Origin: a virus
Strand: one strand, 5' to 3'
IMG/VR virus record: IMGVR_UViG_3300008117_000018
Span: 32,001 to 96,000 of that record
DNA length: 64,000 bases
The notes under the pieces are model-generated. The model had not been told where the DNA came from, did no database searches, and was given only the letters and a program-made list of their open reading frames with translations. The position numbers were made by a program, and so were the translations under genes. Shown in pieces: positions 1-48,618 of the stretch (positions are counted from its first letter, which is position 1; each line of letters opens with the position of its first letter).

Positions 1-972
1 TTTATCATTGTCTATGATTTTACACTGAAGAATGTCTTTATTACCCACTCTTACTCTTTCGTATTGGTACTCTAACTTAGACATTGGATTCCAAGTTCTC
101 CCATCATCTGATGTATATCTTGTCGGTTTAGCCAAGTCTGCATCATAAATGACCAATACTCTTCCATCATTACCACCTGTAAATGAAATACCATCAACTA
201 ATGATATAAATCCATCCATTTTACACAATCTTAGAGCAATCGGACCAGTCAAAAATCTACCCTTTTTGTCCTTTTCTAACTCTTCAACAAAACCACCTGG
301 AGTTGTTACTTTTGTCTTTACTAAGATTTCGTTAAAACCATTCAGTAGTTCTTTATTCTTATTATAGAAATTTAAAAACTTACCACCCATTATTTTTTTC
401 AATTGGTCAATAAGTGTGTGATTAGCTCCCCAAACTTTTTTTGCTTGATTATTTCCTTCAGTCATATCAAGTATTAAAAATTTACCAGTGTTATCGACTC
501 TAAATTCAACAATATTTTGTCCATATCCTCTCATATCAGGTTTACCATCACCATCAAAGTCTCTAATCTGATCATCAAACTCATAACAAGTATACAAACC
601 AACACCATAAAAATCTCCTGCACCTGCTCTGAAACCTTGAGAAATTATTCTTGGATCCTGTGTTGTAATTTTATCACCTATTTTAACTATTGGAAAACCT
701 CTATCATCCAATTTGATATCGGGATTCATATCACTTAGTAATTTAATATTGTTACTGATTGCTAATTGATACTCTTTTGTATTTTTAGTTAAACCAAAAA
801 TCATAGACTCAGCAAATTGTTGATAAAAATTTACATTTGGATCAGGTTCTACATTGACTATATAACTTTGTTCGACTAATCTTGTTCTATGGTAAGCTAA
901 AAACTGACCCGACTCTAAAGCCTCATTGATTCTTAATTCTCTAAATTTGGAAAAATCTCTTATAAATTTCAT
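1..972 (-). CDS. PARP/diphtheria-toxin-like ADP-ribosyltransferase domain protein, runs off the window edge; missing from the ORF track
   Basis: Manual translation from ATG 972 stays open to position 1: MKFIRDFSKFRELRINEA...LAYHRT...IISQGFRAGAGDFYGVGLYTC...YGQNIVEFRV...DGISFTGGNDGRVLVIYD. This matches the H-Y ART motif order. Late box 4 nt upstream. Confidence 0.7.
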   Translation of the reverse strand, partial: MKFIRDFSKFRELRINEALESGQFLAYHRTRLVEQSYIVNVEPDPNVNFYQQFAESMIFGLTKNTKEYQLAISNNIKLLSDMNPDIKLDDRGFPIVKIGDKITTQDPRIISQGFRAGAGDFYGVGLYTCYEFDDQIRDFDGDGKPDMRGYGQNIVEFRVDNTGKFLILDMTEGNNQAKKVWGANHTLIDQLKKIMGGKFLNFYNKNKELLNGFNEILVKTKVTTPGGFVEELEKDKKGRFLTGPIALRLCKMDGFISLVDGISFTGGNDGRVLVIYDADLAKPTRYTSDDGRTWNPMSKLEYQYERVRVGNKDILQCKIIDNDK

Positions 973-1034
973 AATCTATATATAAAAAATAAGATTTTAA
1001 TTTAATATATACTTTATAAAAAAAAAATGAAACT

Positions 1035-1436
1035 ATGAAACATTTAAAAAGATTTAATGAAAGTGAAGATACAACCAAACACTTCTACTCACCAGGATTT
1101 GGTAAAGGAACTGAGAGTAACAGAGAATCGGCTGATAAAATGTTTGCAGAAATTGATAGAATTGCAGATTCCGGATCTGATACAGCTCTACATGATCTTT
1201 TTTATACAATAGACCATATCGAAGAATTTATGCAACAATTCGGATATGTACCAGAAGGTGACCGAAATCAAGATGAGGTTTGGGATGACTTAAGTATGCA
1301 TATACATGACTCTATGAGACCACTTATTAGAAGAGCTATAGGAAGTCCTAACTATCCATCGCGTAAACACCAAAGACCAAATATCGCATACACTCGAAAA
1401 TACTCTGATAAGTTTGTTCCAAGTTGGAAAAAATAA
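1035..1436 (+). CDS. Hypothetical protein with N-terminal MKHLKRFNES motif (putative capsid-internal protein)
   Basis: ORF with late box TTTAATATATA at 1001-1011 and a terminator directly downstream. Confidence 0.7.
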   Translation: MKHLKRFNESEDTTKHFYSPGFGKGTESNRESADKMFAEIDRIADSGSDTALHDLFYTIDHIEEFMQQFGYVPEGDRNQDEVWDDLSMHIHDSMRPLIRRAIGSPNYPSRKHQRPNIAYTRKYSDKFVPSWKK

Positions 1437-1440
1437 ATAA

Positions 1441-1470
1441 AAAAACCTTTGATTCAATTCAAAGGTTTTT
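1441..1470. terminator. Bidirectional intrinsic terminator
   Basis: AAAAACCTTTGA-ttcaat-TCAAAGGTTTTT between convergent genes. Confidence 0.8.
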
Positions 1471-2039
1471 TATTTTGAGTAAGTTACTAATCCACCTAAT
1501 TTTTTTTTCTCTAAAATTATTTCTTCAGTATTTATATTTGATTTTTGGAAATCTCTAATTAATTTATAAAGCCTTCTATTTACTAATCGCAATTGACCAG
1601 ATATATCTTGTGTAGTATAGATTTTAGTTGAATTTGAATTCAGCCTCTCAAATTTGGAATTTACAGGAACTAATATCATTTCACTTTTTTCTAAAAATTG
1701 ATAAGAACACTTATTTGATTTTAAAATATTTCTATTTTTAGAAAATAAATTTTGAGATATATCGAACTTGAAAAAAGGCAAATAACTTCTATAGAAAGTC
1801 CGACCAGCATTAATATTAATAAATTTATGATTGGATATATCAGATACACTTATGTCAAATAACTTACAACTTTCTTCATAAAACTCTCTGACACAAGTTT
1901 TTTCAATACTTTCCCCAAAGTCACATTTTCCACCAGCATCTGATAAAACTCCTCTTTTTGAACCAAATGTTAAAAAGTATAAGTCGTCATTTATCTTAAC
2001 AATTGGTAATATACCACCACCTGAGAATTTAGTATTCAT
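1470..2039 (-). CDS. Nudix hydrolase
   Basis: Nudix box GGKCDFGESIEKTCVREFYEES; N-terminal GGGILP strand; TATATTTG (Bacteroidota -7-like) at 2044-2051. Confidence 0.85.
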   Translation of the reverse strand: MNTKFSGGGILPIVKINDDLYFLTFGSKRGVLSDAGGKCDFGESIEKTCVREFYEESCKLFDISVSDISNHKFININAGRTFYRSYLPFFKFDISQNLFSKNRNILKSNKCSYQFLEKSEMILVPVNSKFERLNSNSTKIYTTQDISGQLRLVNRRLYKLIRDFQKSNINTEEIILEKKKLGGLVTYSK

Positions 2040-2076: not shown

Positions 2077-3135
2077 ATGATTATAAAGAAATTTTCAGAA
2101 TTCAAATTAATATTAGAGAATACAGTAAGTCCTACTAGATTTAGAAACGCGAGTGTAGGTGATATAGTTGATTTTGTAGACCAATTTTTATACAATTCTA
2201 AAAATATAGATATAACCGAAAAAATAGCTGGACAACATCTTACCGTAACAATTAAAGATAATTTTGTCATGGTAAATACAAAAGACCAAATTTTATCAGG
2301 GCAATCTGGAAGAAATGCATCACACTCAAGATGGGGATCAGACATCACTAGACCACTCATAGACATAATTGCCAACCAAAAGTTACCAGATCAAACTTGG
2401 GGATTTGAGATACTAAATCCTCGTTCTAATCACGATTACATACAATATAAAAATGTAGATAAAATATACATTGAATACACTGGTAATCTATCTGAGGAGC
2501 TGGCAGAAGAAATAAGAAAAAAATTAAATACAGGAATAAAACTATTGACAAAAAAAGATATCAAAATTAATATCAATAAAAATCAAGCCTTTGAAGATTT
2601 CAAAAAAGTTTGGGAAGGTGGTTTAAGAAATGAATTCATATCAATGACTTTTAAAGACGATTATAAAGTAGGTAAACTAAAAGATATGATAGGTGATTTA
2701 CTAGATGAAGTAATTGTGTCTGTAGTTGATAAAGTATCACCAATTGAAGGAATTGTTATAGGAACTTCAACACCTATAAAACTACAAACTAATAAATTTT
2801 TAAAAATTCAACGAGTTCAAATGCCAATGTATTCAGTATTCAAAATTAGCAGACATGAAATTGACCAAGTAATGAATAACCCTACTACCTCTTTTGAACA
2901 ATTGAAAAATAAATTTGGCTTAAGATTAGACTCAATATATAGACAAAATCTGAGATATAGTTTATACGAAACTTTAAAATATTATCTTCAACAAAATGCT
3001 AAACTTGAAGGAACAGACACTTCTAAATACAAAAGATGGTTGTCAAGCGAAGAGTCAGAGAGTATGCTAAGAAAATTAACTCAACAAAATTGTAAAGAAA
3101 TATATTTAGAACTTTACAATAAAGTCAATTCTTAG
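2077..3135 (+). CDS. ATP-dependent ligase/nucleotidyltransferase-fold protein (RNA-ligase-like) with variant motif I
   Basis: ITEKIAGQ (cf. KxDG), FE, PIEGIVI (motif IV), IKL (motif V); late box 4 nt before ATG. Confidence 0.5.
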   Translation: MIIKKFSEFKLILENTVSPTRFRNASVGDIVDFVDQFLYNSKNIDITEKIAGQHLTVTIKDNFVMVNTKDQILSGQSGRNASHSRWGSDITRPLIDIIANQKLPDQTWGFEILNPRSNHDYIQYKNVDKIYIEYTGNLSEELAEEIRKKLNTGIKLLTKKDIKININKNQAFEDFKKVWEGGLRNEFISMTFKDDYKVGKLKDMIGDLLDEVIVSVVDKVSPIEGIVIGTSTPIKLQTNKFLKIQRVQMPMYSVFKISRHEIDQVMNNPTTSFEQLKNKFGLRLDSIYRQNLRYSLYETLKYYLQQNAKLEGTDTSKYKRWLSSEESESMLRKLTQQNCKEIYLELYNKVNS

Positions 3136-5123: not shown

Positions 5124-5144
5124 ATTTATTATACTATATAAAAC

Positions 5145-5168: not shown

Positions 5169-5176
5169 AATTTTAG

Positions 5177-5612: not shown

Positions 5613-6011
5613 TTAGATATTATCTTCATATTTAAAATATATGTCCATTCTACACTCACCAGCATTATATTGAGAGTTTGGCTTATCAAAGGCAACACCA
5701 GTTCCCCAATACTTCGTCTTCTCTGAACTATATAGAAACTTATTATCTTTTAAATAATCAGAAACGACACCTATAACATCACTAACTTCATTCCAAGTTA
5801 ATTCACGAGATTCTTTTTTAAGTTTAATTATTATATAATAACCATTAGGACCTTTTCTATTACCAACTTTTACAAATCGAGACTCACCTTCAATATTTTT
5901 AAAATTCAATTCTAATAAAATATCATTAACAATAGGAGTAATATCATTAATAATCTCACTAACATCAGAATCTATTGATTCAAAAAATTTAAAATCTGTT
6001 AAATATCTCAT
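5613..6011 (-). CDS. Hypothetical protein (MRYLTDFKFFES N-terminus)
   Basis: ORF in the late minus-strand operon. Confidence 0.7.
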   Translation of the reverse strand: MRYLTDFKFFESIDSDVSEIINDITPIVNDILLELNFKNIEGESRFVKVGNRKGPNGYYIIIKLKKESRELTWNEVSDVIGVVSDYLKDNKFLYSSEKTKYWGTGVAFDKPNSQYNAGECRMDIYFKYEDNI

Positions 6012-6873: not shown

Positions 6874-8409
6874 TTATTTCAATTCTATTTTAAAATATGT
6901 CTCATCAAAGAATCCTAAATCCTCTATTTTATATTTGTTTAATATTGTTTGTACTCTAATTAGAGCATCATAAATTTCACCCATATCGGTTTCTTCTAAG
7001 TCTAAACTAACAAAGATTCTATCATCTTTACCAACAACTTTAACATCAATTCCAAAGACATTCTTTTTTATCTCATTAATCATGCTTTTATGCTTAGCAA
7101 ATAACTCTTCATTATAACCAACTTTTCTTTTAATTGGAAGTTTATTCCAATCAACTTTTACCGAAGCTTCAGCTAATCTTTTAAGGTAAGAAATATTTTG
7201 CATTTCTGTTCCTCTATGTTCATTATAATAACCAACTGATATATTTGTACATTCTGGTATGTCCTCCATTAATGACGCGGAATCTGTATAAACACCAGTT
7301 GGATCTAATGATAAATTTAATCCATTTTTATTATATTCATCACACAAAGCCTGACCAAATTCGTTAGAACAACATTGTCTACCTAATTGATGTGTTATAA
7401 CAGATGTTGTCCTTCTTCTATCAAAAGAAACACAAGCTTTTACATCAGTTAGATAATCACATCTATCATAAATAGATGAAAGAGCATTAGAACCAATACC
7501 ACCTCTCTCTTCACCAATAAAGAAGTAATAAATACCTGGAACATTATTAGCCATCATATATAACATAACAGCAGTACCAGCTTTATCATCAGCGCCTAAT
7601 ATTGAAGAGCCGTCGGTATAGATATGTTCATCACCAGTTCCACTTTTTATCAATCTAAATGAATAACCTTCTTCAACTACTCGACCATTGACTTGAAATA
7701 ATTTTGTCGTTTTTTGTTCTCTATCAGCCGTATCTAAATGACAAGTAAACATTATTGTTGGTTTTTCAGAACCAATTATTTTATAATAATTTCCAACTTG
7801 GTCTCTCTCAAGAGATGGTAAAAATTTTAAAACTTCCTTTTCATGTCTACAATCATCAAAATGTGGATATGTTTTTGTAGTTAATGAAAGAAAAGTTGCT
7901 TTAACATCTTTAGGATTATACGAAAACTCAGGAACCTTTATTCTTTGAGCTGAGGTAATTGATTCATCGCCAATATTATCAGATGTCATATCATTATATT
8001 GATATATGAATGACTTAATTTCATCTTCTGTTAATAATCCTGGCCAATAATATCTGAAAAATTTACCAATCTTCATATCAAATTTTTTACCACCAATAGT
8101 TACTTCAAAACAATAAGGTTTATTAGAAATAGTCACATCAGTTATACCTAAACCATTCTGGTACTTAGAATCAGACTCACCTAACCAAAGCATCTCAAAA
8201 GCAAGATAACTATCATTGTCTTCCATTTTTTTAAGAACTTTCTCTAATTCAGAAGATATTTTTATTCTAGCAGATCTATCAACATTTTTTGATTCATCAA
8301 AGACATCTTCTTTGCTTTTGTAACCACCACTTGGTTTGTAATCTTTAGCCTGGTCAACTACACTTTGTGTACCAGCTTCAAATATTTGACTATATTTTAA
8401 TAAATTCAT
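6874..8409 (-). CDS. M28/M20-family zinc peptidase with N-terminal extension
   Basis: FTCHLDT, LGADDKAG, GEERG, SFDRR, YTDS, NISVGYYNEH metal-ligand motifs. Confidence 0.85.
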   Translation of the reverse strand: MNLLKYSQIFEAGTQSVVDQAKDYKPSGGYKSKEDVFDESKNVDRSARIKISSELEKVLKKMEDNDSYLAFEMLWLGESDSKYQNGLGITDVTISNKPYCFEVTIGGKKFDMKIGKFFRYYWPGLLTEDEIKSFIYQYNDMTSDNIGDESITSAQRIKVPEFSYNPKDVKATFLSLTTKTYPHFDDCRHEKEVLKFLPSLERDQVGNYYKIIGSEKPTIMFTCHLDTADREQKTTKLFQVNGRVVEEGYSFRLIKSGTGDEHIYTDGSSILGADDKAGTAVMLYMMANNVPGIYYFFIGEERGGIGSNALSSIYDRCDYLTDVKACVSFDRRRTTSVITHQLGRQCCSNEFGQALCDEYNKNGLNLSLDPTGVYTDSASLMEDIPECTNISVGYYNEHRGTEMQNISYLKRLAEASVKVDWNKLPIKRKVGYNEELFAKHKSMINEIKKNVFGIDVKVVGKDDRIFVSLDLEETDMGEIYDALIRVQTILNKYKIEDLGFFDETYFKIELK

Positions 8410-8425: not shown

Positions 8426-8809
8426 TCAAATTGTTATTTCTTCTGAATTTAGATAATCAACTTTTACTTGACCATCATTCATATTTGGCTCCTTCTTAAC
8501 AAACTTTCTTTGACAATATACAACTTTTACAGATGGCTCTTTAGCAGCTTTGCTATTTTTTTTAGCTAATTCCGCAGCATATTTCAATATCTCAGGTGTT
8601 GGTAAATTTTCTCTGACTCTAATTACAACATGGCTTCCAGGAACGCCTTTGACATGCATCCATATATCTTCATCTTCTGCTGTATTAAAGGTTAAAAAGT
8701 CATTAGATTTAGCGTCTCGACCAACCATTATTAAATAACCATCAACTTCTATTTTTTTGATGTCAGGAAATTTAACTTTTTTTGATTCAAAATATTTTAA
8801 ATATTTCAT
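8426..8809 (-). CDS. Stand-alone NFACT-R (DUF814) RNA-binding domain protein
   Basis: VGRDAKSNDFLT, DIWMHVKGVPGSHVVI, AAELA..NS, V.Y.QRKFVKK, GQV. Confidence 0.9.
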   Translation of the reverse strand: MKYLKYFESKKVKFPDIKKIEVDGYLIMVGRDAKSNDFLTFNTAEDEDIWMHVKGVPGSHVVIRVRENLPTPEILKYAAELAKKNSKAAKEPSVKVVYCQRKFVKKEPNMNDGQVKVDYLNSEEITI

Positions 8810-8884: not shown

Positions 8885-10609
8885 TTAGTTTAATAATCCA
8901 TAAGAATCAGAAACTTTAATAGTCATAAACTGTTTTTGTGGGAACCAACCAACTTCAGCAACAGCATATCTAGATCTCAACAACATTCTTGGAGCAAAAG
9001 TAGCCTCAGAAATCAAAGAGATTGATTGTGCCATTAAATAAGGTACGAAAATGATACCTGGTTGATCAGGATTGTTCTTTCTACCAAGAACGATTCTGTT
9101 ATCATTATATCTCATATATGGATCAACGTAGATAGAAATATCACCGATTGAACCAACAGGATATAATTGACCTTGTCCGTTTAACTTAGACTTAACTGGG
9201 TTAATAGTGTAACCAGAAATATCAGCTAAAGCAGCAGCAAGACCCCCGTTTGTGATAAGGTATTGAGCTGGACCTACACGACCTTCAGTTGCAATGTAGT
9301 TAGAAGCGTGAGCAATTTTAGTGATAAGTTTTCTTTGTACGGCGTGAGTAGTTTCACCACCAACTGTACTAGTTACATAAGTAGTATCTAAGTCAAAGAT
9401 TGTTTGGCTAGCAATATTAGTTGAGAAAGTTAATCCAGCTAAAGGCGCGCTAGTTCTGTTAAGATCACCCATTTCAAAAATCTTAGCAACGATTTGCTTA
9501 GAAATTGTTTGAGATAATTCATTAACAAGAATAGATTCCATTTTTTGAACGATATCCATACCTGTGTTAGCTTTGATATCTTCAATTTCAGTTCTTCTAA
9601 GAGCTGAAGATACTTCAATAGTACCAACTGCGATAGTTTTAGAAGAGATTTTTGGTCCGATAACTCCAGAATATCTTGAGTCATCTTGATCTCTATCCAT
9701 TGGATATTGTCCAGAGAATTGAGAAGTTGAACCAGAGTTCCAGTTTGCAGAAAAACCAGGGATATGATCTTCTAACGCAGAAACCAATTCGATTGCAGGC
9801 TCACCACCTAAAGCAGTACCACCTAAAGCAATGATTTGAGAAGCCATAGACGTTGTAGAATCAAATGTATTTCTTGTTGTATCAAAAGCCCAAGTTGTAG
9901 CTGCAGAACCAACCGCTGTATGAGACGTGTTGAATTGTCTGTAAGCTCTGAACATTGGATAACCATCAATTCTTGAGAATCCTAAAAATTCAACTTTATT
10001 TTCTTTATCAGATGGCTCTGAAGTAATTGCAGCACCTGTATCGATGTTATTCCAAATTCTACCATTTAAACCACCTGTAGTTTCGCTAATAACTGGAGAA
10101 GAAGCTGCTAACTGAGCTCTAAGACCAGCGATAACTGCTGTTAATTTAGTAGAAGTCAATCCTGCTGTTTTAGGAGCAATTTTGAAAACTTGTGGTCTTT
10201 CATCTTCATTTCCTAAACGAGTATCATCGTATTGGAAGTCGATGTAAAGAAGGTCGATTTTCGGACCTGGAGATGGTTTAACAGCAACAAGGTCAAGACC
10301 GATTGTTTGAGCAGCAATTTTCATAGCTACAGGAAGTAAGTTTTGACCTACATCTCCTGAACCATTTGAACCACCAAAACCAGCCCAATTGTTACCAATT
10401 GTTGAACCAGCTAAAGTTGAAGGTTGTGGAGCAACAACACCACCCATACCAGCAACGTTAGAAGCATTCACATAAGCGTTCTCGTTGATTGAGTGGAACT
10501 CAGCATATTCTGACATCCAATCAATTCTCTCACCAGTAACACCCATGTTCTCAAGAACTGGAGACCATTTCTTGATAGCTTTAGATTTGTCTATTCTAAT
10601 GTGTGACAT
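8885..10609 (-). CDS. gp23: Major capsid protein (T4 gp23-like)
   Basis: KKWSPVLE N-terminus, IGLDLVAVKP, ILVNELSQTISKQI, IYVDPY, IIFVPY, TFAPRMLLRSRYA; strongly biased codon usage. Confidence 0.93.
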   Translation of the reverse strand: MSHIRIDKSKAIKKWSPVLENMGVTGERIDWMSEYAEFHSINENAYVNASNVAGMGGVVAPQPSTLAGSTIGNNWAGFGGSNGSGDVGQNLLPVAMKIAAQTIGLDLVAVKPSPGPKIDLLYIDFQYDDTRLGNEDERPQVFKIAPKTAGLTSTKLTAVIAGLRAQLAASSPVISETTGGLNGRIWNNIDTGAAITSEPSDKENKVEFLGFSRIDGYPMFRAYRQFNTSHTAVGSAATTWAFDTTRNTFDSTTSMASQIIALGGTALGGEPAIELVSALEDHIPGFSANWNSGSTSQFSGQYPMDRDQDDSRYSGVIGPKISSKTIAVGTIEVSSALRRTEIEDIKANTGMDIVQKMESILVNELSQTISKQIVAKIFEMGDLNRTSAPLAGLTFSTNIASQTIFDLDTTYVTSTVGGETTHAVQRKLITKIAHASNYIATEGRVGPAQYLITNGGLAAALADISGYTINPVKSKLNGQGQLYPVGSIGDISIYVDPYMRYNDNRIVLGRKNNPDQPGIIFVPYLMAQSISLISEATFAPRMLLRSRYAVAEVGWFPQKQFMTIKVSDSYGLLN

Positions 10610-10693: not shown

Positions 10694-12784
10694 TTATAAA
10701 TTTTTGAATCTTTCTAAGATTGCTTGAGCTTCATTGTCTGAGATTTTATCTTCTTGGATAAGTGCCTCATGTGAAACTAATTTCTTAGTAACTGATTCAT
10801 TCTTTTTGAGATTTCTAGTCAACCAGAAATGCTCAACTTGTGCTTCAGTTTTTAATACATCTTCTGGATAAAGTCTTGCTTGAGAAAGCAATGATTTTTT
10901 AGAAGACTCATTTAACTGATTCCAGACTGGCTTAACGTTTTCAGGCATCAATCTGATAACTCTTTCTTCAAGAGTCTCGTTCTTAGTTGATAATGCTTCT
11001 GCGATCAGACCTAACACATCTTTCTGTGTGAAATAACTTCTTTCGTTTATGTGAAGTTTTACAGTTTCCTGTTCTTCGTCTGATAATGCATAAAAGCTAT
11101 CTACTTGTGACTTGTTTAAGAACTTTAAGAAATTCAAGTCAGTAGTTTCAGAAACTTTACGTTTTTTAGCTTCTTCAATAAGTTTATTAATAGATTCTGA
11201 TAATTCAGTATCGTCTTTTCCTGTTACTTCGTAAGAAGATGGACCACATTCTTCCTCTTCTTCCTCTTTATTATGAACGTGAGTCGCTTCAGCAGCTGGA
11301 ACACCATTCATGTTATATTCTGCTTCTTCATCATCTTCTTTATTCCAAGAATTTTCTTTTTCATCATCTTCAACCATTTCAAAACCAGCAGCGTTTAAAG
11401 AAGGAAATGCACCTTCTGATTCGAATAATTTACCACCATTTAATTTTTCAACGATTAATCCTTGATAAGAAATTGATTTATCTAAGCTTTCAGCGATGTA
11501 TTCAGAGTAAGCAATATTATCATCTAAATGTTCAGCGATGTATTCAGAGTAAGCAATATTACCTTCAACATGCTCTGCTAAATACTCAGAATAAGCAATA
11601 GAATTATCAACATGTTCAGCTATATACTCAGCATAAGCAATGTTTTTATCTAAGTTTTCAGCGATGTATTCAGAGTAAGCAATATTTTTGTCTAAGTTTT
11701 CAGCCAAATATTCAGAGTAAGCAATATTTTTGTCTAAGTTTTCAGCCAAATATTCAGAATAAGAAATGTTTTTGTCTAAGTTTTCAGCGATATATTCAGA
11801 ATAAGAAATATTCTTATCAAGATTCTCAGCTAAATACTCTGAGTACTCAATATTTTTATCTAAATTTTCAGCAACATACTCTGTGTAATTAATAGCCTTT
11901 TCTAAGTTTTCAGCTAAATAATCATTGTGTTTAACTAATTTTTCAGTCGTAGATTTAAGAGATTTGTTCTCATTTACAACAACTTGAATTTTCTCAGCTA
12001 AATAATCTAAGTATTTTACCACTTTAGAATTTGTCTCGTTTAACTCCTCATAATACTCAAGTAGTTGTTCTAATTTTTTAGGACTCATATTTCCTTTAGA
12101 AATTGCATTTTTGACTTCTTTCTTAGTAGAGGCAATCTCATTTACTAAGTATTGTGAATAATCAGTCAACTGTTTTTTTGTTACGAATTCGTTTTTGTTC
12201 ATGTTGAATAATTCATTTATTTTAGACTCGTCGGACATTTCATATATCCTAAAGTTAGATTGTGGATTGTATCCTAAGGACTCATTCAAAACTTTAACAC
12301 TCATTTTTGCAGAAGCAAAACCTGGGTCAGCTACTATATCATATGTGAAAAGTTTTTTCAAAGAAACAGAACCATCAGATTCAGTGATACCAGCTGCTCT
12401 TGATGATACAAATACTGGACAACCATCATCAACCAAAGCCTTTGCCTCTTTACCCCAATAAGTTGATAAAAGTTTAATTTCACCAGATACTAAGTTTTGT
12501 TCTTTAATGTATTGCGCTTTAGTGATTGTGTGAGATGCTCTTGCCAAAGATGTATCAAAAACATCTGGGTGGTCAAATTCACCATAAACAGCACCTAAAC
12601 TATTCATTCTTTCGTTTAATTCATCTAAGGCAGGAAGGAATTTATCTGCAGTATAGATTCTTTCGTTTCTATTCTTAACACCAAATTCCGTGAATGTACC
12701 TCCTAAGATATAATCCTTCTTACTAGAAGAATTTTCTCTAATAAGAGAATTAGTTGAGTTTTCTACTATTAAAACTGGTTTCAT
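10694..12784 (-). CDS. gp21: Prohead protease (gp21-like) fused to a scaffold/core-like coiled coil
   Basis: NRNERIY, GEFDHP, SH, VSSRAAG, TYDIVADPGF; long repeat-containing C-terminal coiled coil. Confidence 0.9.
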   Translation of the reverse strand: MKPVLIVENSTNSLIRENSSSKKDYILGGTFTEFGVKNRNERIYTADKFLPALDELNERMNSLGAVYGEFDHPDVFDTSLARASHTITKAQYIKEQNLVSGEIKLLSTYWGKEAKALVDDGCPVFVSSRAAGITESDGSVSLKKLFTYDIVADPGFASAKMSVKVLNESLGYNPQSNFRIYEMSDESKINELFNMNKNEFVTKKQLTDYSQYLVNEIASTKKEVKNAISKGNMSPKKLEQLLEYYEELNETNSKVVKYLDYLAEKIQVVVNENKSLKSTTEKLVKHNDYLAENLEKAINYTEYVAENLDKNIEYSEYLAENLDKNISYSEYIAENLDKNISYSEYLAENLDKNIAYSEYLAENLDKNIAYSEYIAENLDKNIAYAEYIAEHVDNSIAYSEYLAEHVEGNIAYSEYIAEHLDDNIAYSEYIAESLDKSISYQGLIVEKLNGGKLFESEGAFPSLNAAGFEMVEDDEKENSWNKEDDEEAEYNMNGVPAAEATHVHNKEEEEEECGPSSYEVTGKDDTELSESINKLIEEAKKRKVSETTDLNFLKFLNKSQVDSFYALSDEEQETVKLHINERSYFTQKDVLGLIAEALSTKNETLEERVIRLMPENVKPVWNQLNESSKKSLLSQARLYPEDVLKTEAQVEHFWLTRNLKKNESVTKKLVSHEALIQEDKISDNEAQAILERFKNL
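11466..11926 (-). repeat. About 11 tandem 42-nt repeats encoding SEY(L/I)AENLDKNI(A/S)Y
   Basis: Visible directly in both DNA and protein. Confidence 0.9.
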
Positions 12785-15685: not shown

Positions 15686-16116
15686 GGTTTTATAAGATAA
15701 CAACCACTAAACACCAAAGAGAGATTGATGAAATAATTATGTCTATGTCATCAACAGAGGTAGATTATGTATCAACATTATACAACAAGATATCAATGGT
15801 TGAGTTTACCGATGAAAAAGAATACGAATGTATGTTTGCCATTCTAGACAAATATCTATTAAATAAGATATCTGAACTATATCTAAAATACTCTATCGAT
15901 CATAAAATATTTGATTTGACAAAGGATATTATTTTTGATAATAATTTAAAATTATCATATAAAAACTATAGAAATCAACCAGTTAAGAATGAAGTTCTAA
16001 AACTTATTAAATTGTTCAAAAAAGACTGGACTACAAAAGATGATGTTTTGGATAAAATACTAGAAAAAGGAATCAATTCATTATCAGATTTTGATTTAGA
16101 AATTCTGAACTCTTAG
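15682..16116 (+). CDS. Hypothetical protein with C-terminal DUF6576-like helix pair
   Basis: DDVLDKILEKGINSLSDFDLEIL. Confidence 0.65.
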   Translation: MRFYKITTTKHQREIDEIIMSMSSTEVDYVSTLYNKISMVEFTDEKEYECMFAILDKYLLNKISELYLKYSIDHKIFDLTKDIIFDNNLKLSYKNYRNQPVKNEVLKLIKLFKKDWTTKDDVLDKILEKGINSLSDFDLEILNS

Positions 16117-21333: not shown

Positions 21334-21699
21334 TTAAATAGAATGTAGTCCTTGGCCATCATTACTACCTTCTATAGATATTAATTTTATTTGATTCTCA
21401 TTATCACCCTTTTTCTTATACAACTCATTAAAACCCTTAGCTATTCCTCTTTTAAAGACTTCTGTAAAATAAGCAAAAGCATTCACTGATTTATCTTCAT
21501 TAAAATTATACCAATTTTGATACATATCTAATAAACCCGATTGATAACAATCAAGTTTATCATCATTTGACCAATATCTCATTTTTTTGATTGTTTTCTT
21601 ACCAAGAAGTTCTAACATTTTTTCAGCATTTCTGGTCAGTTTACCTTGTGCTTTTGATACGATTATCTCAACATAGAGATCTTTATTATTTAAATACAT
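21334..21699 (-). CDS. gp55: Late-transcription sigma factor (T4 gp55-like, compact)
   Basis: YLNNKDL N-terminus, D...G, NFNEDKSVNAFAYFT region-2 motif. Confidence 0.75.
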   Translation of the reverse strand: MYLNNKDLYVEIIVSKAQGKLTRNAEKMLELLGKKTIKKMRYWSNDDKLDCYQSGLLDMYQNWYNFNEDKSVNAFAYFTEVFKRGIAKGFNELYKKKGDNENQIKLISIEGSNDGQGLHSI

Positions 21700-25373: not shown

Positions 25374-25748
25374 ATGCCAGTAAACTTTAAAGATTTCTAC
25401 ATAGGATATAAAGGTCATCCAAGATACGAATCTTCTAAATTTATAGAAGATGATGTAATTAGAGTAATCGTTCAAAAATATGAAATGATAATTTTCACTA
25501 ACAAAGGTGAGTTATTAGGTGATCCTAGTTTTGGTGCTGATTTACCGCTATTACTTCATGAGACAAGACTCTCAGAAGATAGTATACAAGGCGATATAAA
25601 CGCTCAAATATTTGAATATATACCTGAAATAAGTAATATACCCTATACTTTAGAGGTCAATATTTATGATGATCCAGAAAGACACCAAGAGTGGATGGAA
25701 ATTCTTTTTCAGATTAGAGACTTAGAAGTATACGCAACAGTAATCTAA
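25374..25748 (+). CDS. gp25: Baseplate wedge protein gp25-like
   Basis: IIFTNKGELLGDPSFGADL...LHE, YIPEI. Confidence 0.8.
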   Translation: MPVNFKDFYIGYKGHPRYESSKFIEDDVIRVIVQKYEMIIFTNKGELLGDPSFGADLPLLLHETRLSEDSIQGDINAQIFEYIPEISNIPYTLEVNIYDDPERHQEWMEILFQIRDLEVYATVI

Positions 25749-26887: not shown

Positions 26888-27559
26888 TTAAGCCGGTAGT
26901 TCTTCCTCACCCTCTTCCTCTTCTTGTGCTTGACCCTGTCCTTGTGCTTGACCCTGTCCTTGTGCTTGACCCTGTCCTTGTGCTTGACCCTGTCCTTGTG
27001 CTTGACCCTGTCCTTGTGCTTGAGGTTCTTCAAATTCACCTTCTTGAGCTTGAGCTTGACCTTGTGCTTGACCTTGTCCTTGTGCTTGACCTTGTGGCTG
27101 TGCTTGACCTTGTCCTTGTGCTTGACCTTGTCCTTGTGCTTGACCTTGTCCTTGTGCTTGACCTTGTGGTTGTGCTTGACTTTGTGGCTGTGCTTGACCT
27201 TGTGGCTGTGCTTGCATTTGAGCCTCACCTTCTACTTCAACTTGCGGTTGAGATTGAGATGATTGTCCCTGAGCTTGACCACCCATAAGAGCATTACCTG
27301 GAAGCTTTTCAACGTCCAAATTATTCATATTAATATATTTAACAATTTCCTCGGCGATATCAACATCCCCAAAAAATTGGCGTAAATTCTTACCTGTTGT
27401 ATCTTTTACTTTTTTAACATAAGCATTGATTAATGACTGAGGAATGTCAATCATTGTCTTAACTTTATAGATATCGTTTACTTGTAAAACAGATTCTTTT
27501 ATAATCTCTTCTCTGTTTTTTCTAATACGATAACTTTCAAATGTTCTAATGTGCTTCAT
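26888..27559 (-). CDS. Putative capsid-internal protein with Gln/Gly/Ala low-complexity tail
   Basis: MKHIRTFES...IIKES N-terminus; QAQGQG repeats; late box upstream. Confidence 0.7.
   Translation of the reverse strand: MKHIRTFESYRIRKNREEIIKESVLQVNDIYKVKTMIDIPQSLINAYVKKVKDTTGKNLRQFFGDVDIAEEIVKYINMNNLDVEKLPGNALMGGQAQGQSSQSQPQVEVEGEAQMQAQPQGQAQPQSQAQPQGQAQGQGQAQGQGQAQGQGQAQPQGQAQGQGQAQGQAQAQEGEFEEPQAQGQGQAQGQGQAQGQGQAQGQGQAQGQGQAQEEEEGEEELPA
26925..27215 (-). repeat. 18-nt coding tandem repeats (CAAGCACAAGGACAAGGT-like, QAQGQG)
   Basis: Two arrays seen directly in the DNA. Confidence 0.9.
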
Positions 27560-29213: not shown

Positions 29214-29220
29214 GATGAAT

Positions 29221-34877: not shown

Positions 34878-37607
34878 ATGAAATATCTAAATAACAGAGA
34901 CGAATTTCTCAATGCTATAAAAACAGTAAAATATGAAGATTTTAAACTAAATGAGTCTGTTGACATGACTAACTCTGGTCCATTTAGTAATGATGTGCCT
35001 TGGGGTGATACATTAGTCGGAAGATTAGTTAATGCAATAAGGAGAAAAATAGGTATTGGAGTTAATATAGTTCGAATACAACCATTAATAAGAAGGTTAA
35101 AAACAGAATTTGACAATATTATTGAATATTCGCTTGTAGGTGAGTTATCCGAGGAAGATAAGAAAAAAATGGTAATGATAATTATCTGTACTATAATAAG
35201 AGATATTAAACTTGCGATTATAGATAGTGCTTCAACAGGAGATGATTCTGATGAGTTAGCAGATATAGCCAACTTTGAGATTTCTGATGATAAAATGACA
35301 CCAATAAAAGACGAAGACTATCTAAAAGAAGTCGATAGTATAATCACCGAAGTAATTATTCTTATACAGGATATTTCTGTTGAAATCGGTGTTGAAATAG
35401 ACAATCAAGATGAGTTGATAAAAATATTACAGGAACTTCAAAAACAAGTCAAAGAAATGAAGAAGAAGTTCAAAGAAGAAGAAGAAGGCGCGCAAAAAGA
35501 TGAAGAGGATAAAGAAAATAAAGACAACTCAAAATCCAAGTCTTACAACGAAAACTTTAAATCAGTTGCTCAGCTAATGATTCAATATAAATCAGCCAAA
35601 GACAAACAAGCGGAATTATACAAAGGTAAAAATATATTGGCTGGAAAAGAAGTGGCTGGAAAAGAAGTGGCTGGAAAAGAAGTGGCTGGAAAAGAAGTTG
35701 GTCCAGGCTCTGAATTAGGTAAGTCAAACAAAGAAGTGACTGCTGAGGTAGATAATAAAAATCTTTCTAGAGTAACAGATTCTTTTTTATTCGAGGCAAA
35801 CCAACAATCACCCGTGCTTTTACAATTAAAAAAGACATATGACACATTTATACAAATAGAACCGGATACTATAAAAAGTCTGGAATCTTACTTAAAAATG
35901 AGTGAAGAAAATCAGTTAGCATCAAAATTCTCTGGCGCTTTAGATAGAATCTATACTCAAATTAGAAAAAAACAAGGAATATCAGAAAGAATTTTAATTA
36001 AAGAGGACATAAATGTATTGTTATCTAATGATACAAAAATAGCCGATTCAATTAACAATTTATATAATGTATCAAAACAAAAACCAGACGGTTCTTTTGA
36101 TGGTATAAGTCCAGAAATGAAATCAGCATTAGTAAGTTTCAATACAACAATGAAGAATATTCTATCAAGTGAAAAAACAAAAGATACTTCAGATGAAGAC
36201 AAAGAAGAGGTAAATAAAAATATCTCTGATGTAATGGACTCTTTTAGTTCTAGAAAATTAATGAGATATAATAGCTTCAGAAAAATAAATGAAGCAGATG
36301 ACAATACGAGTAAGGGAGATGATAATAAAGCTCAGAAACTTGAAGATGTTGAGTTTGTAACTATTTCTAATCAAAAATCTATACTATCCGCATATTGGAC
36401 AGAAATTTATGAATCTAAAATATCTAAAATCTTAGTTACAGAACAAAAATACAAAGAACTTAAAAAAGAGGTTGTTAAAATAAATGTTGAAGTCAAAACA
36501 GCATTAACACTGGATGGAATGGATCCAATTATCTCAGTATTGAAGTTATTTAACCGAGCTTACAAATTATACACAGTAAATTCTATACCAGGTGGAAGAA
36601 CGGGTGGTAAAATTTCAAGAGGTGTTTCAAATGAGTACACACCTGTTGGTGGGGGTAGCTTTGGTTCTGGTGAAAATTTGTCAGGTACTAATGGACCATA
36701 CAGAAACAATAGAATATTTAATATGTGGGAAAATGCAGTTTTAGACATAACTAGAGATAGAAAATATCAACCGATTTTTTCAAAGAAAACTAAAATAAGA
36801 GTAGGTGATGAATTAAAAGAAGCAGCTGGTCCTATTTTTCTAAAACTAATAAATGATTTGTTAGATGGTTCTAAGCTCTATGGACAAGGACAAACAGGTA
36901 AAGGCGCACAGCATGAATTCATTGAAAAATACTTTGGTACTGAATCCGCTGGTGAAATAAAGCCTGAAGCTATATCACCTGGTGGTGCAGAGGAGACTAA
37001 GCAGACTCAAGAAATAGCAGAAAAAGTAAAATCTACTCAATTAAGTTTTGAAGATAAAGAATTCGAAATCAAAAATGTTGGTGATTTGAAAAGAACTATA
37101 ATTAAACTAGAAGTTGACATGATACCTAAAGATGGTCTATCTGATGAAGAAAAAGAAAAATTAAAAGAAAATAAAGAATTTACAACAGAAAAAAGATATT
37201 TCCTAATCTTAGAAGGGAATAATGATTTGTTGTATGTTATCCACTCAAGCACATTCTTCAACATATTGAAGTATATCAGAAATGATTTTGAGAAAAAAGG
37301 TGGTGAAGTGACATTCAAAGACTCATCATTATTGGCTGAACTTGATAGAGATGTATATCTTATGAGAATGAAACCACAAAACTTCAATAAAATGATAAGA
37401 AAAGGAACGATTGTAAATCTTGTAGGATTAAAATCTGACAGCACATCAAGCATTGATTTAGGAAAACAAAAAACTATTTCGAGAAAATGGCTTTGTCAAG
37501 ACGAAGAAAAAAATAAGTATTTGCTAGAAAACTACAGCTATAAAAACGCAAAAGGTTTCGCAACAGATAGACTAGCATCAAATACGAGAGAAAGTACAAT
37601 TGTATAA
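34878..37607 (+). CDS. Large putative internal/ejection protein (909 aa)
   Basis: Late box at 34846-56; MKYL N-terminus; internal KLNES, FLFEA, KINEA sites; AGKEV x4 repeat at about 35640-35700. Confidence 0.65.
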   Translation: MKYLNNRDEFLNAIKTVKYEDFKLNESVDMTNSGPFSNDVPWGDTLVGRLVNAIRRKIGIGVNIVRIQPLIRRLKTEFDNIIEYSLVGELSEEDKKKMVMIIICTIIRDIKLAIIDSASTGDDSDELADIANFEISDDKMTPIKDEDYLKEVDSIITEVIILIQDISVEIGVEIDNQDELIKILQELQKQVKEMKKKFKEEEEGAQKDEEDKENKDNSKSKSYNENFKSVAQLMIQYKSAKDKQAELYKGKNILAGKEVAGKEVAGKEVAGKEVGPGSELGKSNKEVTAEVDNKNLSRVTDSFLFEANQQSPVLLQLKKTYDTFIQIEPDTIKSLESYLKMSEENQLASKFSGALDRIYTQIRKKQGISERILIKEDINVLLSNDTKIADSINNLYNVSKQKPDGSFDGISPEMKSALVSFNTTMKNILSSEKTKDTSDEDKEEVNKNISDVMDSFSSRKLMRYNSFRKINEADDNTSKGDDNKAQKLEDVEFVTISNQKSILSAYWTEIYESKISKILVTEQKYKELKKEVVKINVEVKTALTLDGMDPIISVLKLFNRAYKLYTVNSIPGGRTGGKISRGVSNEYTPVGGGSFGSGENLSGTNGPYRNNRIFNMWENAVLDITRDRKYQPIFSKKTKIRVGDELKEAAGPIFLKLINDLLDGSKLYGQGQTGKGAQHEFIEKYFGTESAGEIKPEAISPGGAEETKQTQEIAEKVKSTQLSFEDKEFEIKNVGDLKRTIIKLEVDMIPKDGLSDEEKEKLKENKEFTTEKRYFLILEGNNDLLYVIHSSTFFNILKYIRNDFEKKGGEVTFKDSSLLAELDRDVYLMRMKPQNFNKMIRKGTIVNLVGLKSDSTSSIDLGKQKTISRKWLCQDEEKNKYLLENYSYKNAKGFATDRLASNTRESTIV

Positions 37608-38161
37608 TGAAATATTTGAAAAAATATCAACTCTTTTTAGAAGAAGATGAGTTTGAAATTAAAGACACAGATAAAGAAGATGTAAAATTATCAAAAGATA
37701 AACTTAATCTTTTGAAAAAACATCTTACTGAATATCAGTCAAAAAAACAAGCAATTGATGAAGTCTATAAAAACTCTCAAAATTTAGAAGAGACAGGTGA
37801 AAAGATTAAAACAATTTTAGGTGAAGAATCAGAAGAGAGAAATCCATTTTTAGTAGATTATAACAACATTGCAAGAATAACCAAAGAAATTGATATTATT
37901 CATAAAGAGTTAGTTCAAGATAAATTAAGAGCAGATGACTTTAGAGAAGAATCAACTTTAGTGAAAGACTCAGAGACTAAAGCCGCAATTGTTGGTAAAC
38001 TAACAGATGTTCAGAATAGAATAGCGGAAAAAAACAAAAAAATTGTTGATAAACAAAAAGAAATACAAGAGCTAACTACCGAACATCAGGAAAAAATGTC
38101 TCAAATGAAAGAGGATATGGAAGAATATATCAAAAAAATATCCGAAACAGAGAAAAAATAG
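37607..38161 (+). CDS. Coiled-coil protein (MKYLKKYQLFLEE N-terminus)
   Basis: ORF coupled to the 909-aa gene. Confidence 0.7.
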   Translation: MKYLKKYQLFLEEDEFEIKDTDKEDVKLSKDKLNLLKKHLTEYQSKKQAIDEVYKNSQNLEETGEKIKTILGEESEERNPFLVDYNNIARITKEIDIIHKELVQDKLRADDFREESTLVKDSETKAAIVGKLTDVQNRIAEKNKKIVDKQKEIQELTTEHQEKMSQMKEDMEEYIKKISETEKK

Positions 38162-46501: not shown

Positions 46502-46502
46502 T

Positions 46503-47147
46503 TTACTTTTTAAGAGTGATTGTAATAGTAGCACTTTTATCACCATATCTATCTTCTGTTATTTCCTTTTCAACATTAAATTTTGAAAAATCTATACCTC
46601 TAAAAAGACCATTCCATTTTCTATCAGTATAAGAACTTACATATCCATTACAATTAACAGTGATTTTCAATTCTTCTTTATCCAATTTCTTAGTCATACC
46701 ATTAACAAAGTCGCTTTTAGCAGCAAATGTTTTTTTAGTCATTTCATTATAAAGTTGTTGAACTAAAAACAAAGGTCCATCGACTTTAGATTTTTGTATA
46801 AAAGTAACTACTATATGATGTCTCATATGTGGATTTATTGAAACTCTAGAGCTTTCTAAGCGATTTTTAAGAGCTATTAACTCATCTAAGAAATCCCAAA
46901 ATTTATCATCAATAATTGTTTCACTGTATCCACCAGATGGTCCTAATTTAAAAGAGTTTCTAAATATTATATTAATAGATTTATATCCAGAAAATTCACC
47001 TTCGGTTATAATTCTTGGTTCCGAAAAAGAATATTCAATTCCTAGGTCAGCAATAGGAAGTAATAACTCATCTAAATCTTCTTTAGATAAATCTGTTATA
47101 TCCTGAGATTCATTTAAATGTTGTAAAAACTTATGTAAGTATTTCAT
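46503..47147 (-). CDS. Hypothetical protein (MKYLHKFLQHLNES N-terminus)
   Basis: ORF in the late operon. Confidence 0.7.
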   Translation of the reverse strand: MKYLHKFLQHLNESQDITDLSKEDLDELLLPIADLGIEYSFSEPRIITEGEFSGYKSINIIFRNSFKLGPSGGYSETIIDDKFWDFLDELIALKNRLESSRVSINPHMRHHIVVTFIQKSKVDGPLFLVQQLYNEMTKKTFAAKSDFVNGMTKKLDKEELKITVNCNGYVSSYTDRKWNGLFRGIDFSKFNVEKEITEDRYGDKSATITITLKK

Positions 47148-47848
47148 TATTTGTTTTTAAGTTTTTTATCTAATATCTGAGCAATATGACTTCCTATAAA
47201 AAAGTGAAAGTTTTTCAGTGTATCTGTATCAAAAGTTTCTATTTCGTCCATAAATCTAAACTGAAATCTATAATAATCATTTGAGTTATCACTATCATCA
47301 ATATAAACTTTTTTTATAGACAACTCCATATCATATTGATTATTAATGTTGATTTTAAAATCAAAAGTGGTTTTGTCACAAGGAGTGTGTTTAAATTTTG
47401 GTTGATACTGAACATCAAAAACCGAATAATCAGTTATATTCTCTCTGCGCATATAATAATTTAAGAACATTGAAGGTGCCTCAATAAAGTCCGAAAGTAT
47501 CTGTAAATCTTCTCCAAAATCATTTGAATCTACTATATCTTCTATCTTTTTCTTTAAATCTAAGAGATTTTCAAATTGAATTTTATGATAAACACAATTA
47601 ATTTCGTACAAATAAATAAACGAATTTTCAATTAAGTTCTTTTTTTCCGAGTCTACTTTAAATATAAATTTAGTATGAATTATTGAAATATCTTCAGTTG
47701 ACAATCCATGTAAAGTTATTACAAGTTTTAAATAACTATCATCATCTGGTTTTTCATATAATGTCTCAATAGACGAAACCACTGTCTCATCTTCAGTTGT
47801 AAACAACTCTTTAAATATTTCTTCGACCTCTGATATTTTTACTCCCAT
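47147..47848 (-). CDS. Hypothetical protein
   Basis: ORF in the late operon. Confidence 0.7.
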   Translation of the reverse strand: MGVKISEVEEIFKELFTTEDETVVSSIETLYEKPDDDSYLKLVITLHGLSTEDISIIHTKFIFKVDSEKKNLIENSFIYLYEINCVYHKIQFENLLDLKKKIEDIVDSNDFGEDLQILSDFIEAPSMFLNYYMRRENITDYSVFDVQYQPKFKHTPCDKTTFDFKININNQYDMELSIKKVYIDDSDNSNDYYRFQFRFMDEIETFDTDTLKNFHFFIGSHIAQILDKKLKNK

Positions 47849-47853
47849 ATTAA

Positions 47854-48618
47854 TTATTTAAATTGTTTATCGTATAACTTTCTTTTCATTTCCATTACTT
47901 TACCGATATATCCATTTCTTCTAAGTAGTTTAAAAACTAAATTACCTAAAGAAAATTCCCCACTTTCAGAATCTAAACCACTTTGACGATAGTTTTTGAT
48001 TTTTTTCCAAACTTTTTTTATCTTTGGCTCTAATTCGTCAAAGTCTTTACTCTTTGACTCTTCTTCAATATCATCTATTGACATTATAATATTTTTAGAC
48101 TTTTCTTTTATCATTCTTTCATTGGGTTTGAAATCCATTTTGACTGGTTTTTTAACCCATTTATCATGTAGTAACGAATAAACACCACCCATTTTCCCGG
48201 TTTTGAGTTCATCTCTCATAACATCGTCATCTTGAATACAAACCTCAACTTCATATCCTTTTATTTTGATATCATGTTGTTCATTCCAAATCTTTTTAGC
48301 ATAATCACATAGTTTTTCAACTAAGTCATAGTCTTCATCAACATCTTTAAATTTAATTGTTATATGTAAATCATAATCAGAATATTTCTCGGACCAGTTA
48401 TAATTACAAAGAGAACCACAAAGAATTATATCAATTACATCCGCTTTAATTTCAGTACCATCAAAAAAATCCTGACCAATTTGAAGTAATTGTTTTCTAA
48501 CTTCGTTGTCTAATTCAAAATCATCCCATAATTTAGTAGGTAAATTGTCTTGCAATCTAAATGACTTTATAGGTGTAAATGTTCCTCTTTTGAATTCAAA
48601 AAACTTTGTCAATTTCAT
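47854..48618 (-). CDS. Pol-beta-superfamily nucleotidyltransferase
   Basis: ILCGSLCNYNWS..SDYDLHI (GS..DxD), VEVCIQD, GVYSL. Confidence 0.8.
   Translation of the reverse strand: MKLTKFFEFKRGTFTPIKSFRLQDNLPTKLWDDFELDNEVRKQLLQIGQDFFDGTEIKADVIDIILCGSLCNYNWSEKYSDYDLHITIKFKDVDEDYDLVEKLCDYAKKIWNEQHDIKIKGYEVEVCIQDDDVMRDELKTGKMGGVYSLLHDKWVKKPVKMDFKPNERMIKEKSKNIIMSIDDIEEESKSKDFDELEPKIKKVWKKIKNYRQSGLDSESGEFSLGNLVFKLLRRNGYIGKVMEMKRKLYDKQFK

Follow-up and report, generated by a model that had tools for sequence, protein, structure and literature searches.

Here we describe a short peptide with which unrelated proteins begin in a window of viral DNA, the window being the whole stretch of 64,000 nucleotides analysed (bases 32001-96000 of a 111,418-bp viral contig, IMG/VR record IMGVR_UViG_3300008117_000018; 29% GC). 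Roughly every fifth or sixth protein of the contig fragment begins with the peptide, hereafter called the tag, examples of which in this phage are MKYLKYFES, MKHLKRFNES and MIKTFSQFIKES. Motif sharing with the head proteins, gene neighbourhood and promoter association lead us to consider it probable that the tag is a capsid-targeting propeptide, similar in its action to the capsid-targeting sequence (CTS) of phage T4 and expanded in huge (about 460-735 kb) T4-type phages predicted to live on Bacteroidota.

The contig has 110 called genes; positions in the window are given as such or with the prefix w, and those on the contig with the prefix C1. At the DNA level the region of the capsid and protease genes shares 76-77% identity with LR745206 (635 kb) as well as LR756502 (642 kb), and LR756504 and LR756501/3 (735 kb) are remoter relatives in the same region. 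The complete 'Mahaphage' genomes (Al-Shayeb et al. 2020) include these LR records, are the largest phage genomes reported there and have Bacteroidetes as their predicted hosts (PMC7162821). The capsid protein also links the contig, at a greater distance, with the Lak phages and with cultured jumbo phages that infect Tenacibaculum (PTm1, pT24) or Chryseobacterium. Genome-scale counts were made on the whole sequence of LR745206, the closest complete relative, with 921 called N-termini.

The tag is concentrated at true gene starts

The initial annotation had listed 15 tagged N-termini in the window, and all of them were recovered at their coordinates and strands. They are given here with protein length, the score in a hidden Markov model (HMM) of the tag and the position of the TAATATATA box, a motif treated below; orthologs are those of LR745206.

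1..972, minus strand: 5' part of a tagged gene of 824 aa (C1 30498-32972), start MKFIRDFSKFRELRINEALES, tag coded at about w910-972
1035..1436, plus strand: tagged gene, 133 aa, MKHLKRFNES, 23.5 bits, box upstream
2077..3135, plus strand: tagged gene, 352 aa, MIIKKFSEFKLILEN (second class), box ending 4 nt before the ATG
5613..6011, minus strand: tagged gene, 132 aa, MRYLTDFKFFES, 19.8 bits
6015..6290, minus strand: tagged gene, 91 aa, MKYIKLFES, 20.8 bits
6303..6872, minus strand: tagged gene, 189 aa, MKIKTFIKYLEN, ortholog tagged
6874..8409, minus strand: tagged peptidase, 511 aa, MNLLKYSQIFEA, phrog_4191 (E 9e-66), box ending 4 nt before the ATG
8426..8809, minus strand: tagged NFACT-R protein, 127 aa, MKYLKYFES, Pfam NFACT-R_1 (E 1.5e-17) from residue 21, box upstream
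25745..26197, minus strand: tagged SET protein, 150 aa, MKYLKFFEN, Pfam SET (E 1.2e-12) from residue 34
26211..26825, minus strand: tagged gene, 204 aa, MRFLKTFES, box ending 4 nt before the ATG, ortholog tagged
26888..27559, minus strand: tagged gene, 223 aa, MKHIRTFES, 19.9 bits, ortholog tagged
34878..37607, plus strand: tagged gene, 909 aa, long tag MKYLNNRDEF...KLNES, box 21 nt upstream, ortholog start MKYLSKRSEYLKSAKYKVINES
37607..38161, plus strand: tagged gene, 184 aa, MKYLKKYQLFLEE, 18.2 bits
46503..47147, minus strand: tagged gene, 214 aa, MKYLHKFLQHLNES, 9.7 bits
47854..48618, minus strand: weakly tagged nucleotidyltransferase (NTase)-like gene, 254 aa, MKLTKFFEF, 4.7 bits, box ending 5 nt before the ATG

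At least eight further tagged starts lie on the contig flanks (C1 759+, 15594-, 27691+, 28050+, 28268+, 29259+, 30498- and 110415-), so that about 23 of the 110 contig genes are tagged. A strict regular expression for the core of the tag, M-[KRI]-x-[LIVFK]-[KRT]-x-[FYN], matched 12 of the 110 called starts and only 3 of the 3683 other ATGs in the six frames of the contig, and two of these three are in-frame ATGs and hence probably true starts. A looser expression covering the whole tag gave the same picture in LR745206 (78 of the 921 called starts vs 16 of the 7369 other open ATGs). About 11 of these 16 sit just inside a called open reading frame (ORF) and in frame with it, being therefore probably true starts as well, and after refinement of the starts 89 genes of LR745206 were tagged. 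The profile HMM, built from the hits of the regular expression and used with a threshold of at least 10 bits, identified 116 of the 921 N-termini vs 4 of the 2873 windows at internal Met residues; below this threshold up to 170 N-termini score. The enrichment of the tag at true starts is consequently greater than 100-fold, and its share of the proteome is 13-18% in the clade.

Sequence, length classes and codon use of the tag

The tag comprises 8-17 residues and is basic and aromatic, with Lys at positions 2 and 5, Leu or Ile at position 4 and Phe or Tyr at position 7, and it ends in Glu preceded by Phe, Asn or a hydrophobic residue and followed by Ser or Asn. The enrichment of Leu/Ile at position 4 and of Phe/Tyr at position 7 is visible across all 921 N-termini of LR745206. 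Three main length classes have their first Glu at position 8 (MKYLKxFES), 9 (MKYLKxFNES) or 11 (MKYLKxYKIFES), and a second class of tag, MIKK[YW]xxFIxE, is common among the genes missed by the strict model. The residue after the Glu is Ser in half of the cases, followed in frequency by Asn, Glu or Ala.

Codon choice in the tags is that of the genome (Lys AAA 0.76 in tags vs 0.74; Glu GAA 0.73 vs 0.72; Tyr TAT 0.76 both in tags and at other N-termini), Leu being encoded by TTA, CTA, CTT and TTG and Ser by both TCN and AGT codons, which indicates selection on the amino acid sequence rather than on the RNA or a bias toward AT. The controls at other ATGs and at internal Met residues, together with this codon test, reject both AT bias and an RNA element, and among about 80 genes of phage PTm1, which has the same GC, no tag was seen. 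The AT-bias artefact that the initial annotation had foreseen as a pitfall was thus not borne out, and its central observation, a modular peptide on unrelated late proteins, is real and concerns the protein level. A Sec or lipoprotein signal peptide was also rejected, as the tags contain no hydrophobic stretch and transmembrane-like segments occur in 2 of the 89 carriers (vs 81 of the 832 other proteins of LR745206). The carriers are on average more acidic than the other proteins of that phage (net charge per residue -0.049 vs -0.011).

Head genes and their shared glutamate sites

Targeting to the capsid by a T4-like route calls for the corresponding head machinery and, as judged from homology, the major capsid protein (MCP), portal, protease with scaffold and late sigma factor are all encoded in the window:

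8885..10609, minus strand: gp23-like MCP (Pfam Gp23, E 1.2e-27)
10694..12784, minus strand: fusion of a gp21-type head maturation protease with a scaffold-like C-terminal part (phrog_207, E 5.9e-30, residues 4-230)
11477..11914, minus strand: 42-nt tandem repeat in 10.4 copies coding NIAYSEYIAENLDK (TRF and protein alignment)
16113..17834, minus strand: gp20-like portal (phrog_213, E 9e-58), TAATATATA box 25 nt upstream
21334..21699, minus strand: gp55-like late sigma (phrog_234, E 1.6e-6)
29506..31644, minus strand: T4-type large terminase, 712 aa (Pfam Terminase_6N, E 1.6e-21)

Genes for a clamp loader, the tail sheath and a baseplate wedge are present there too. The match of the protease-scaffold protein to Pfam Peptidase_S77 is weak, and in PTm1 the annotation of its homolog reads 'prohead core scaffolding protein and protease'.

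In the alignment of the MCP from seven phages, a T4-like segment KKW-x-P-[VI]-L-E is followed by an invariant Glu43-Asn44 pair within H-S-I-N-E↓N-A-Y (arrows mark expected cuts). E43 is followed by no further Glu until the conserved core of the protein, which begins at G83-S-G-D. We predict from this alignment that the MCP is matured by cleavage after E43 (HSINE↓NAY). Searched directly against the PDB with phmmer, the MCP gave no hit; T4 gp23 was reached only with the profile of the seven sequences, which places its K-I-F-E-N on the E43 site. In its mature form T4 gp23 is shorter by 65 residues.

The protease-scaffold protein, aligned with six orthologs, shows a conserved [VI]-[LI]-N-E↓S directly behind the protease domain, the place at which T4 gp21 and the proteases of phiKZ and SPN3US trim their own C-termini (PMC9026906, PMC5694885). 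Its scaffold-like part contains ten units of 14 residues, N-I-A-Y-S-E-Y-I-A-E-N-L-D-K, each with an I-A-E↓N that resembles the end of the T4 CTS (EFIAE), and then K-L-F-E↓S, which in the two closest orthologs is K-L-N-E-S or K-L-N-E-N. The array is kept in the huge-phage orthologs and absent in PTm1, and the repeat may be both a docking surface for the tags and a means of scaffold disposal. When the 110 contig proteins were ranked by such motifs with their N-terminal tags excluded, the protease-scaffold came first for all three patterns tried: [LIVFMY].E[SN] with 15 sites, [FN]E[SN] with 5 and [LIVFMY][FN]E[SN] with 4.

The tags end in F-E-S, F-N-E-S, L-N-E-S, I-N-E-A or I-L-E-N; at the level of sequence, these endings are the same short motif as the sites expected for a T4-type protease in the shell and the scaffold. 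The hydrophobic P3 is present in FNE↓S, KIFE↓S and the second-class FIKE↓S and missing in the commonest class, KxFE↓S. Gene order also brings the tag close to the head, with five tagged genes directly downstream of the MCP gene and on the same strand, among them the NFACT-R gene as the first, and with two tagged genes directly upstream of the portal gene in LR756502.

Association with a putative late promoter

The TAATATATA box was found within 40 nt upstream of 48 of the 116 tagged genes of LR745206 vs 98 of the 805 untagged ones (odds ratio 5.1, p 7e-13), and of 35 of the 89 tagged genes vs 111 of the 832 others when the set was defined by the regular expression. On the contig the portal gene has the box too, as have the genes of a gp25-like baseplate wedge and of three fibres and a number of very large ORFs of structural appearance, and its position before virion genes, together with the presence of a gp55-like sigma, makes it a plausible T4-style late promoter. 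The initial annotation had placed its 15 genes under this box or in operons downstream of one, which holds for all 15, and the association with late promoters that it had proposed to test is reflected in the fivefold enrichment of tagged genes behind this putative promoter.

Between the end of the box and the ATG there are usually 4-5 nt, so that the mRNAs of many such genes are probably leaderless. The tag is present in 29 of the 73 'leaderless' box genes, in 19 of the 72 box genes with a leader and in 68 of the 776 boxless genes. It is hence not tied to the leaderless layout, and the fact that the fibres and the wedge are boxed and untagged argues against a function at translation start.

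Genes of presumed early or middle timing served as the comparison. As the initial annotation had stated, glnII (glutamine synthetase), gp44 (clamp loader), gp47 (Mre11-like) and NADAR are untagged, and we confirmed ClpS and a Dam methylase as untagged too. Its 'rnr' was not found; the only ORF of that size tested (29506..31644) is the large terminase and not a ribonucleotide reductase or RNase.

Proteins that carry the tag

With their first 15 residues removed, the 89 carriers of LR745206 sort by BLASTP into 85 families, of which 76 have a single member, and the tag precedes complete and differing domains, including a Nudix hydrolase just outside the window. Carriers reach 1284 aa. A tag is kept in 13 of the 14 tagged contig genes that have a reciprocal best hit in LR745206; the LR745206 ortholog of the peptidase at 6874..8409 has no clear tag. 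Between orthologs the tag drifts and even switches class (MKYLKYFES vs MIKKYKLFKEG).

Conservation of the tag is best seen in the 824-aa protein, where it is kept in 20 homologs with M1, I4, F10, E17, L19, E20 and S21 invariant, the consensus of the 20-sequence family being MKFI[KR]D[FY]xKF[KR]xx[RK]I[ND]ExLES. The AlphaFold2 (AF2) model of this protein, made with 20 homologs (pLDDT 71), has pLDDT below 50 for nearly all of residues 1-33, suggesting that the tag region is a flexible appendage. Foldseek gave only alpha-solenoid matches, to the C-terminal part, and the N-terminal domain is poorly modelled. An ADP-ribosyltransferase (ART) identity, which would have paralleled T4 Alt, received no support for this protein, Pfam and PHROGs being empty even at E 1.

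The enzymatic character of the carriers was overstated in the initial annotation. Its NFACT-R and SET labels are supported by Pfam, its peptidase label by phrog_4191, and its NTase label weakly: the protein at 47854..48618 matches phrog_36119, of unknown function (E 3.5e-35), and Pfam MTPAP-like at E 0.005. Its ART, 'ligase-like' and 'Cys hydrolase' labels received no support from Pfam, PHROGs or AF2 with Foldseek, and the 352-aa protein at 2077..3135 has no Pfam or PHROG match. In LR745206 Pfam matches 2 of the 89 carriers and PHROGs 5 of the 89. Recognised enzymes are a minority of the carriers, most of which are of unknown function.

One of the 89 LR745206 carriers is a Peptidase_M15_4 protein (a cell-wall hydrolase of the D-Ala-D-Ala carboxypeptidase type, E 9e-15). 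Should the tag mean packaging, this protein could be an entry lysin carried by the virion.

Tagged genes occur in every 50-kb bin of LR745206 and cluster there, with 44 adjacent pairs vs 14.4 +/- 3.3 expected. Arrays of 3-5 consecutive small tagged genes are located at 450900-458342, 360690-373967 and 624229-626406 of that genome, and many of the array genes have an acidic segment, D-I-x-D-x-x-x-E-L-x-D-x-G, behind the tag. These arrays recall the hyperplastic internal-protein loci of the T-even phages.

Distribution of the tag among phages

One exact codon version of MKYLKxFES located 49 IMG/VR loci with 664 ORFs in all; 204 of these carry the tag, and frequently they make up half of a locus. 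Contigs of 140-500 kb hold many of the loci, and the contigs checked were rated by CheckV as 30-70% of a complete genome of about 700 kb. One IMG/VR record of 464 kb, 98% complete, is rich in tags and encodes a protease-scaffold 71% identical to the one described here. The same codon pattern gave only 2 chance matches in 596 Gb of sequence from 185,579 prokaryote species, neither of them at a gene start. Among the data scanned, the tag was found only in viral contigs. Variant tags are present in the 735-kb LR756501 (..[LN]xxYKxFxxE) and in the Lak phages (MNKLIKKLVES; in Lak-B5, MNKLIKKL[VM]E[SG]LFDD), which suggests, as far as sequences can tell, a clade-wide system that diverges between subclades.

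Comparison with T4 and phiKZ-like phages

The CTS found on T4's internal proteins IPI, IPII, IPIII and Alt was reportedly described by Mullaney and Black in 1996. In T4, N-terminal propeptides of 10-19 residues target these four proteins to the scaffold core and are removed by gp21; residues 4 and 7 of IPIII serve targeting and residues 8 and 10 processing (PMC9026906), and the 10-residue CTS alone packages foreign proteins (PMC9026906; PMC3012670). The T4 record shows that IPII and IPIII start with MKTYQEFIAE↓A, the sequence given in the initial annotation.

The likeness to this system has several sides. A short N-terminal peptide (10-19 aa in T4, 8-17 here) stands on otherwise unrelated proteins; its first residues are Met-Lys, positions 4 and 7 are hydrophobic or aromatic, a likeness that is a pattern match only, and a small residue comes after its terminal Glu; and the second tag class (MIKKYxQFIKE↓A) repeats the Y-x-x-F-I-x-E spacing found in MKTYQEFIAE. 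Head genes of gp21, gp20 and gp23 type, a scaffold-like region and transcription of the gp55 type are likewise shared, known here from the genes alone. The two systems differ in that a handful of T4 proteins carry the peptide vs more than 100 per genome here, that three or four length classes exist here, and that protease and scaffold are here one fused protein with a 14-residue tandem repeat.

In phiKZ-like giants (201phi2-1, phiKZ, SPN3US) a gp21-related protease cuts propeptides at S/A/G-x-E (PMC5694885, PMC7411985), and mass spectrometry shows 8-19 head proteins cut after Glu (PMC5694885). They offer a further precedent for processed cargo on a large scale. Processing of many head-internal proteins after Glu by a T4-related prohead protease is common to those phages and, as predicted from motifs, to the present one. 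The propeptides are in both cases thought to target proteins into the prohead, and scaffold and propeptides bear multiple redundant sites. The propeptides of the phiKZ-like giants differ in being mostly longer than 100 residues and without a common sequence, the P3 preference is another, and those phages belong to another lineage. No description of the present tag expansion was found in the literature searched.

Capsid targeting weighed against other explanations

The capsid-targeting proposal of the initial annotation is supported in part, and indirectly, by the modularity of the tag, the T4-type head genes, the shared Glu motif and the putative late box; sequence homology to the T4 CTS was not detected. 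Several results weigh against capsid targeting. The tag HMM gives the T4 CTS (IPII, IPIII) 1.1 bits, below some T4 control N-termini, so that the relation is one of analogy and not of homology; the commonest class, MKYLKxFES, has a variable P3, unlike the L/I-x-E rule of T4; and the mean net charge of the carriers is negative, in contrast to the basic internal proteins of T4. A cargo of 116-170 protein species in one genome has no precedent known to us. The count of 116 is itself partly circular because the HMM was trained on the regular-expression set, about 27 of the 116 being new and the internal-Met background being independent. Likewise, the binomial p of 2.5e-7 for the 15 [LIVFMY].E[SN] sites of the protease-scaffold is inflated, as the repeats copy one unit and the sites are not independent. 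Only about 41% of the carriers have a box of their own, and the cultured relative PTm1 (Tenacibaculum, 30% GC), which has the same fused protease-scaffold beside its MCP, is without the tag among about 80 genes.

Some of these difficulties would suit a tag that addresses another late structure or partner, such as tail or baseplate assembly, a phage-made cytoplasmic compartment or a common chaperone, the likeness to protease sites being then a coincidence. Besides the lack of homology to the T4 CTS, the unprecedented number of carriers and their acidity, the two tagged genes just upstream of the tail sheath gene and the tags of the Glu-8 class without hydrophobic P3 are in line with such an address. 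We judge it unlikely nevertheless, given that the tag ending recurs at the invariant site of the MCP and in the scaffold, that tagged genes adjoin the MCP and portal genes and that no candidate for an alternative receptor was identified. The tag could also be an expression element boosting the translation of late mRNAs, largely without leaders, where the host makes no use of Shine-Dalgarno sequences. This fits the box ending 4-5 nt before the ATG of many genes, the frequency of the tag in the leaderless-box class (29 of 73), where it is commonest, and the general enrichment of Lys at position 2 of N-termini. It is made improbable by the lack of constraint on synonymous sites, by the fact that the best-conserved features are hydrophobic residues 4 and 7 and a Glu-Ser end at variable distance from the start, by the 60% of leaderless-box genes, fibres and baseplate wedge included, that are untagged, and by the 68 tagged genes without any box.

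Instead of sorting, the tag might serve as a degron read by ClpS, which is encoded in the window, or as the leader that a modifying enzyme recognises (a maturase of RiPP-like or radical-SAM type). Such a role appears very improbable: the residue after the Glu is S, N, A or E and the start is Met-Lys, neither of which is a ClpS N-degron residue under the established N-end rule, and carriers extend to 1284 aa and include complete enzyme domains. The radical-SAM version was rejected, Radical_SAM (PF04055) being absent from the contig and from the tag-rich 464-kb relative that is 98% complete. We give hardly any credence to a functionless tag, inherited within one expanded paralog family or produced by AT-rich mutational bias. 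The 29% GC of the genome, the arrays with their 44 adjacent pairs vs 14.4 expected and the acidic D-I-x-D-x-x-x-E-L-x-D-x-G region behind the tag of some carriers would be accounted for in this way; the 85 BLAST families among 89 carriers with differing Pfam domains, the 0.1% background at internal Met residues and out-of-frame ATGs of the same genome, the lack of the tag among about 80 genes of PTm1, of the same GC, and the orthologs whose tags persist and vary in sequence inside the motif would not. Paralogy and composition bias are in fact largely refuted by the family count and the start controls.

A proposed model for tag-directed packaging

Returning to capsid targeting as the probable function, the pieces can be arranged into a pathway. 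Motif and homology suggest that the tagged genes would be transcribed late from TAATATATA promoters with the gp55-like sigma, alongside portal, baseplate and fibre genes. The peptide is prepended to complete and unrelated domains and, by analogy with T4 IPIII, would dock on the scaffold core, that is, on the acidic part of the protease-scaffold fusion made of 14-residue repeats. The cargo would be enclosed as the gp23-like shell forms. The shared motifs indicate that the gp21-type protease may then cut after Glu at hydrophobic-x-E↓(S/N/A) in the MCP (E43), in the scaffold repeats and in the tags, and tag cleavage would free the cargo inside the head. Finally, the cargo would exit with the DNA at infection and could act before any phage gene is expressed.

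It is possible, and we put this wider claim forward only tentatively, that the largest known phages package in this manner an 'injected proteome' of at least 100 mostly unknown proteins (13-18% of the genes) by means of one short, evolvable tag, docking on a repeat-built scaffold and clipping by the head protease. If so, sequence alone would be enough to tell the virion cargo throughout an entire uncultivated clade, and the tag would offer a ready-made packaging handle for Bacteroidota phages. The role of the hundreds of unknown genes of huge phages would be partly answered as well, since many would be pre-made effectors delivered with the DNA before phage transcription, and a defined list of candidate anti-defence and host-takeover proteins would be at hand. 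The 14-residue scaffold repeat, with a cut site per unit, is a concrete candidate for the docking surface.

Other features of the window

No tRNA or tmRNA was detected by ARAGORN anywhere in the window, and the 490-nt ORF-free gap within 5000-5700 had no Rfam match at E <= 0.01. The untagged glutamine synthetase (20199-21272, plus strand) matches Pfam Gln-synt_C (E 3.9e-20) and has an N-terminal domain in addition. The ClpS adaptor (29215-29505, plus strand; Pfam ClpS, E 3.3e-19) adjoins the terminase gene, and a phage ClpS could redirect host ClpAP N-degron proteolysis in infection. Three consecutive fibre genes of about 620-636 aa (55033-60702, minus strand) contain long Gly-Thr-Ser and collagen-like Gly-x-y repeats, and each has a TAATATATA box ending 4-5 nt before its ATG. 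The GC content over this segment is 39-43%, vs 29% elsewhere.

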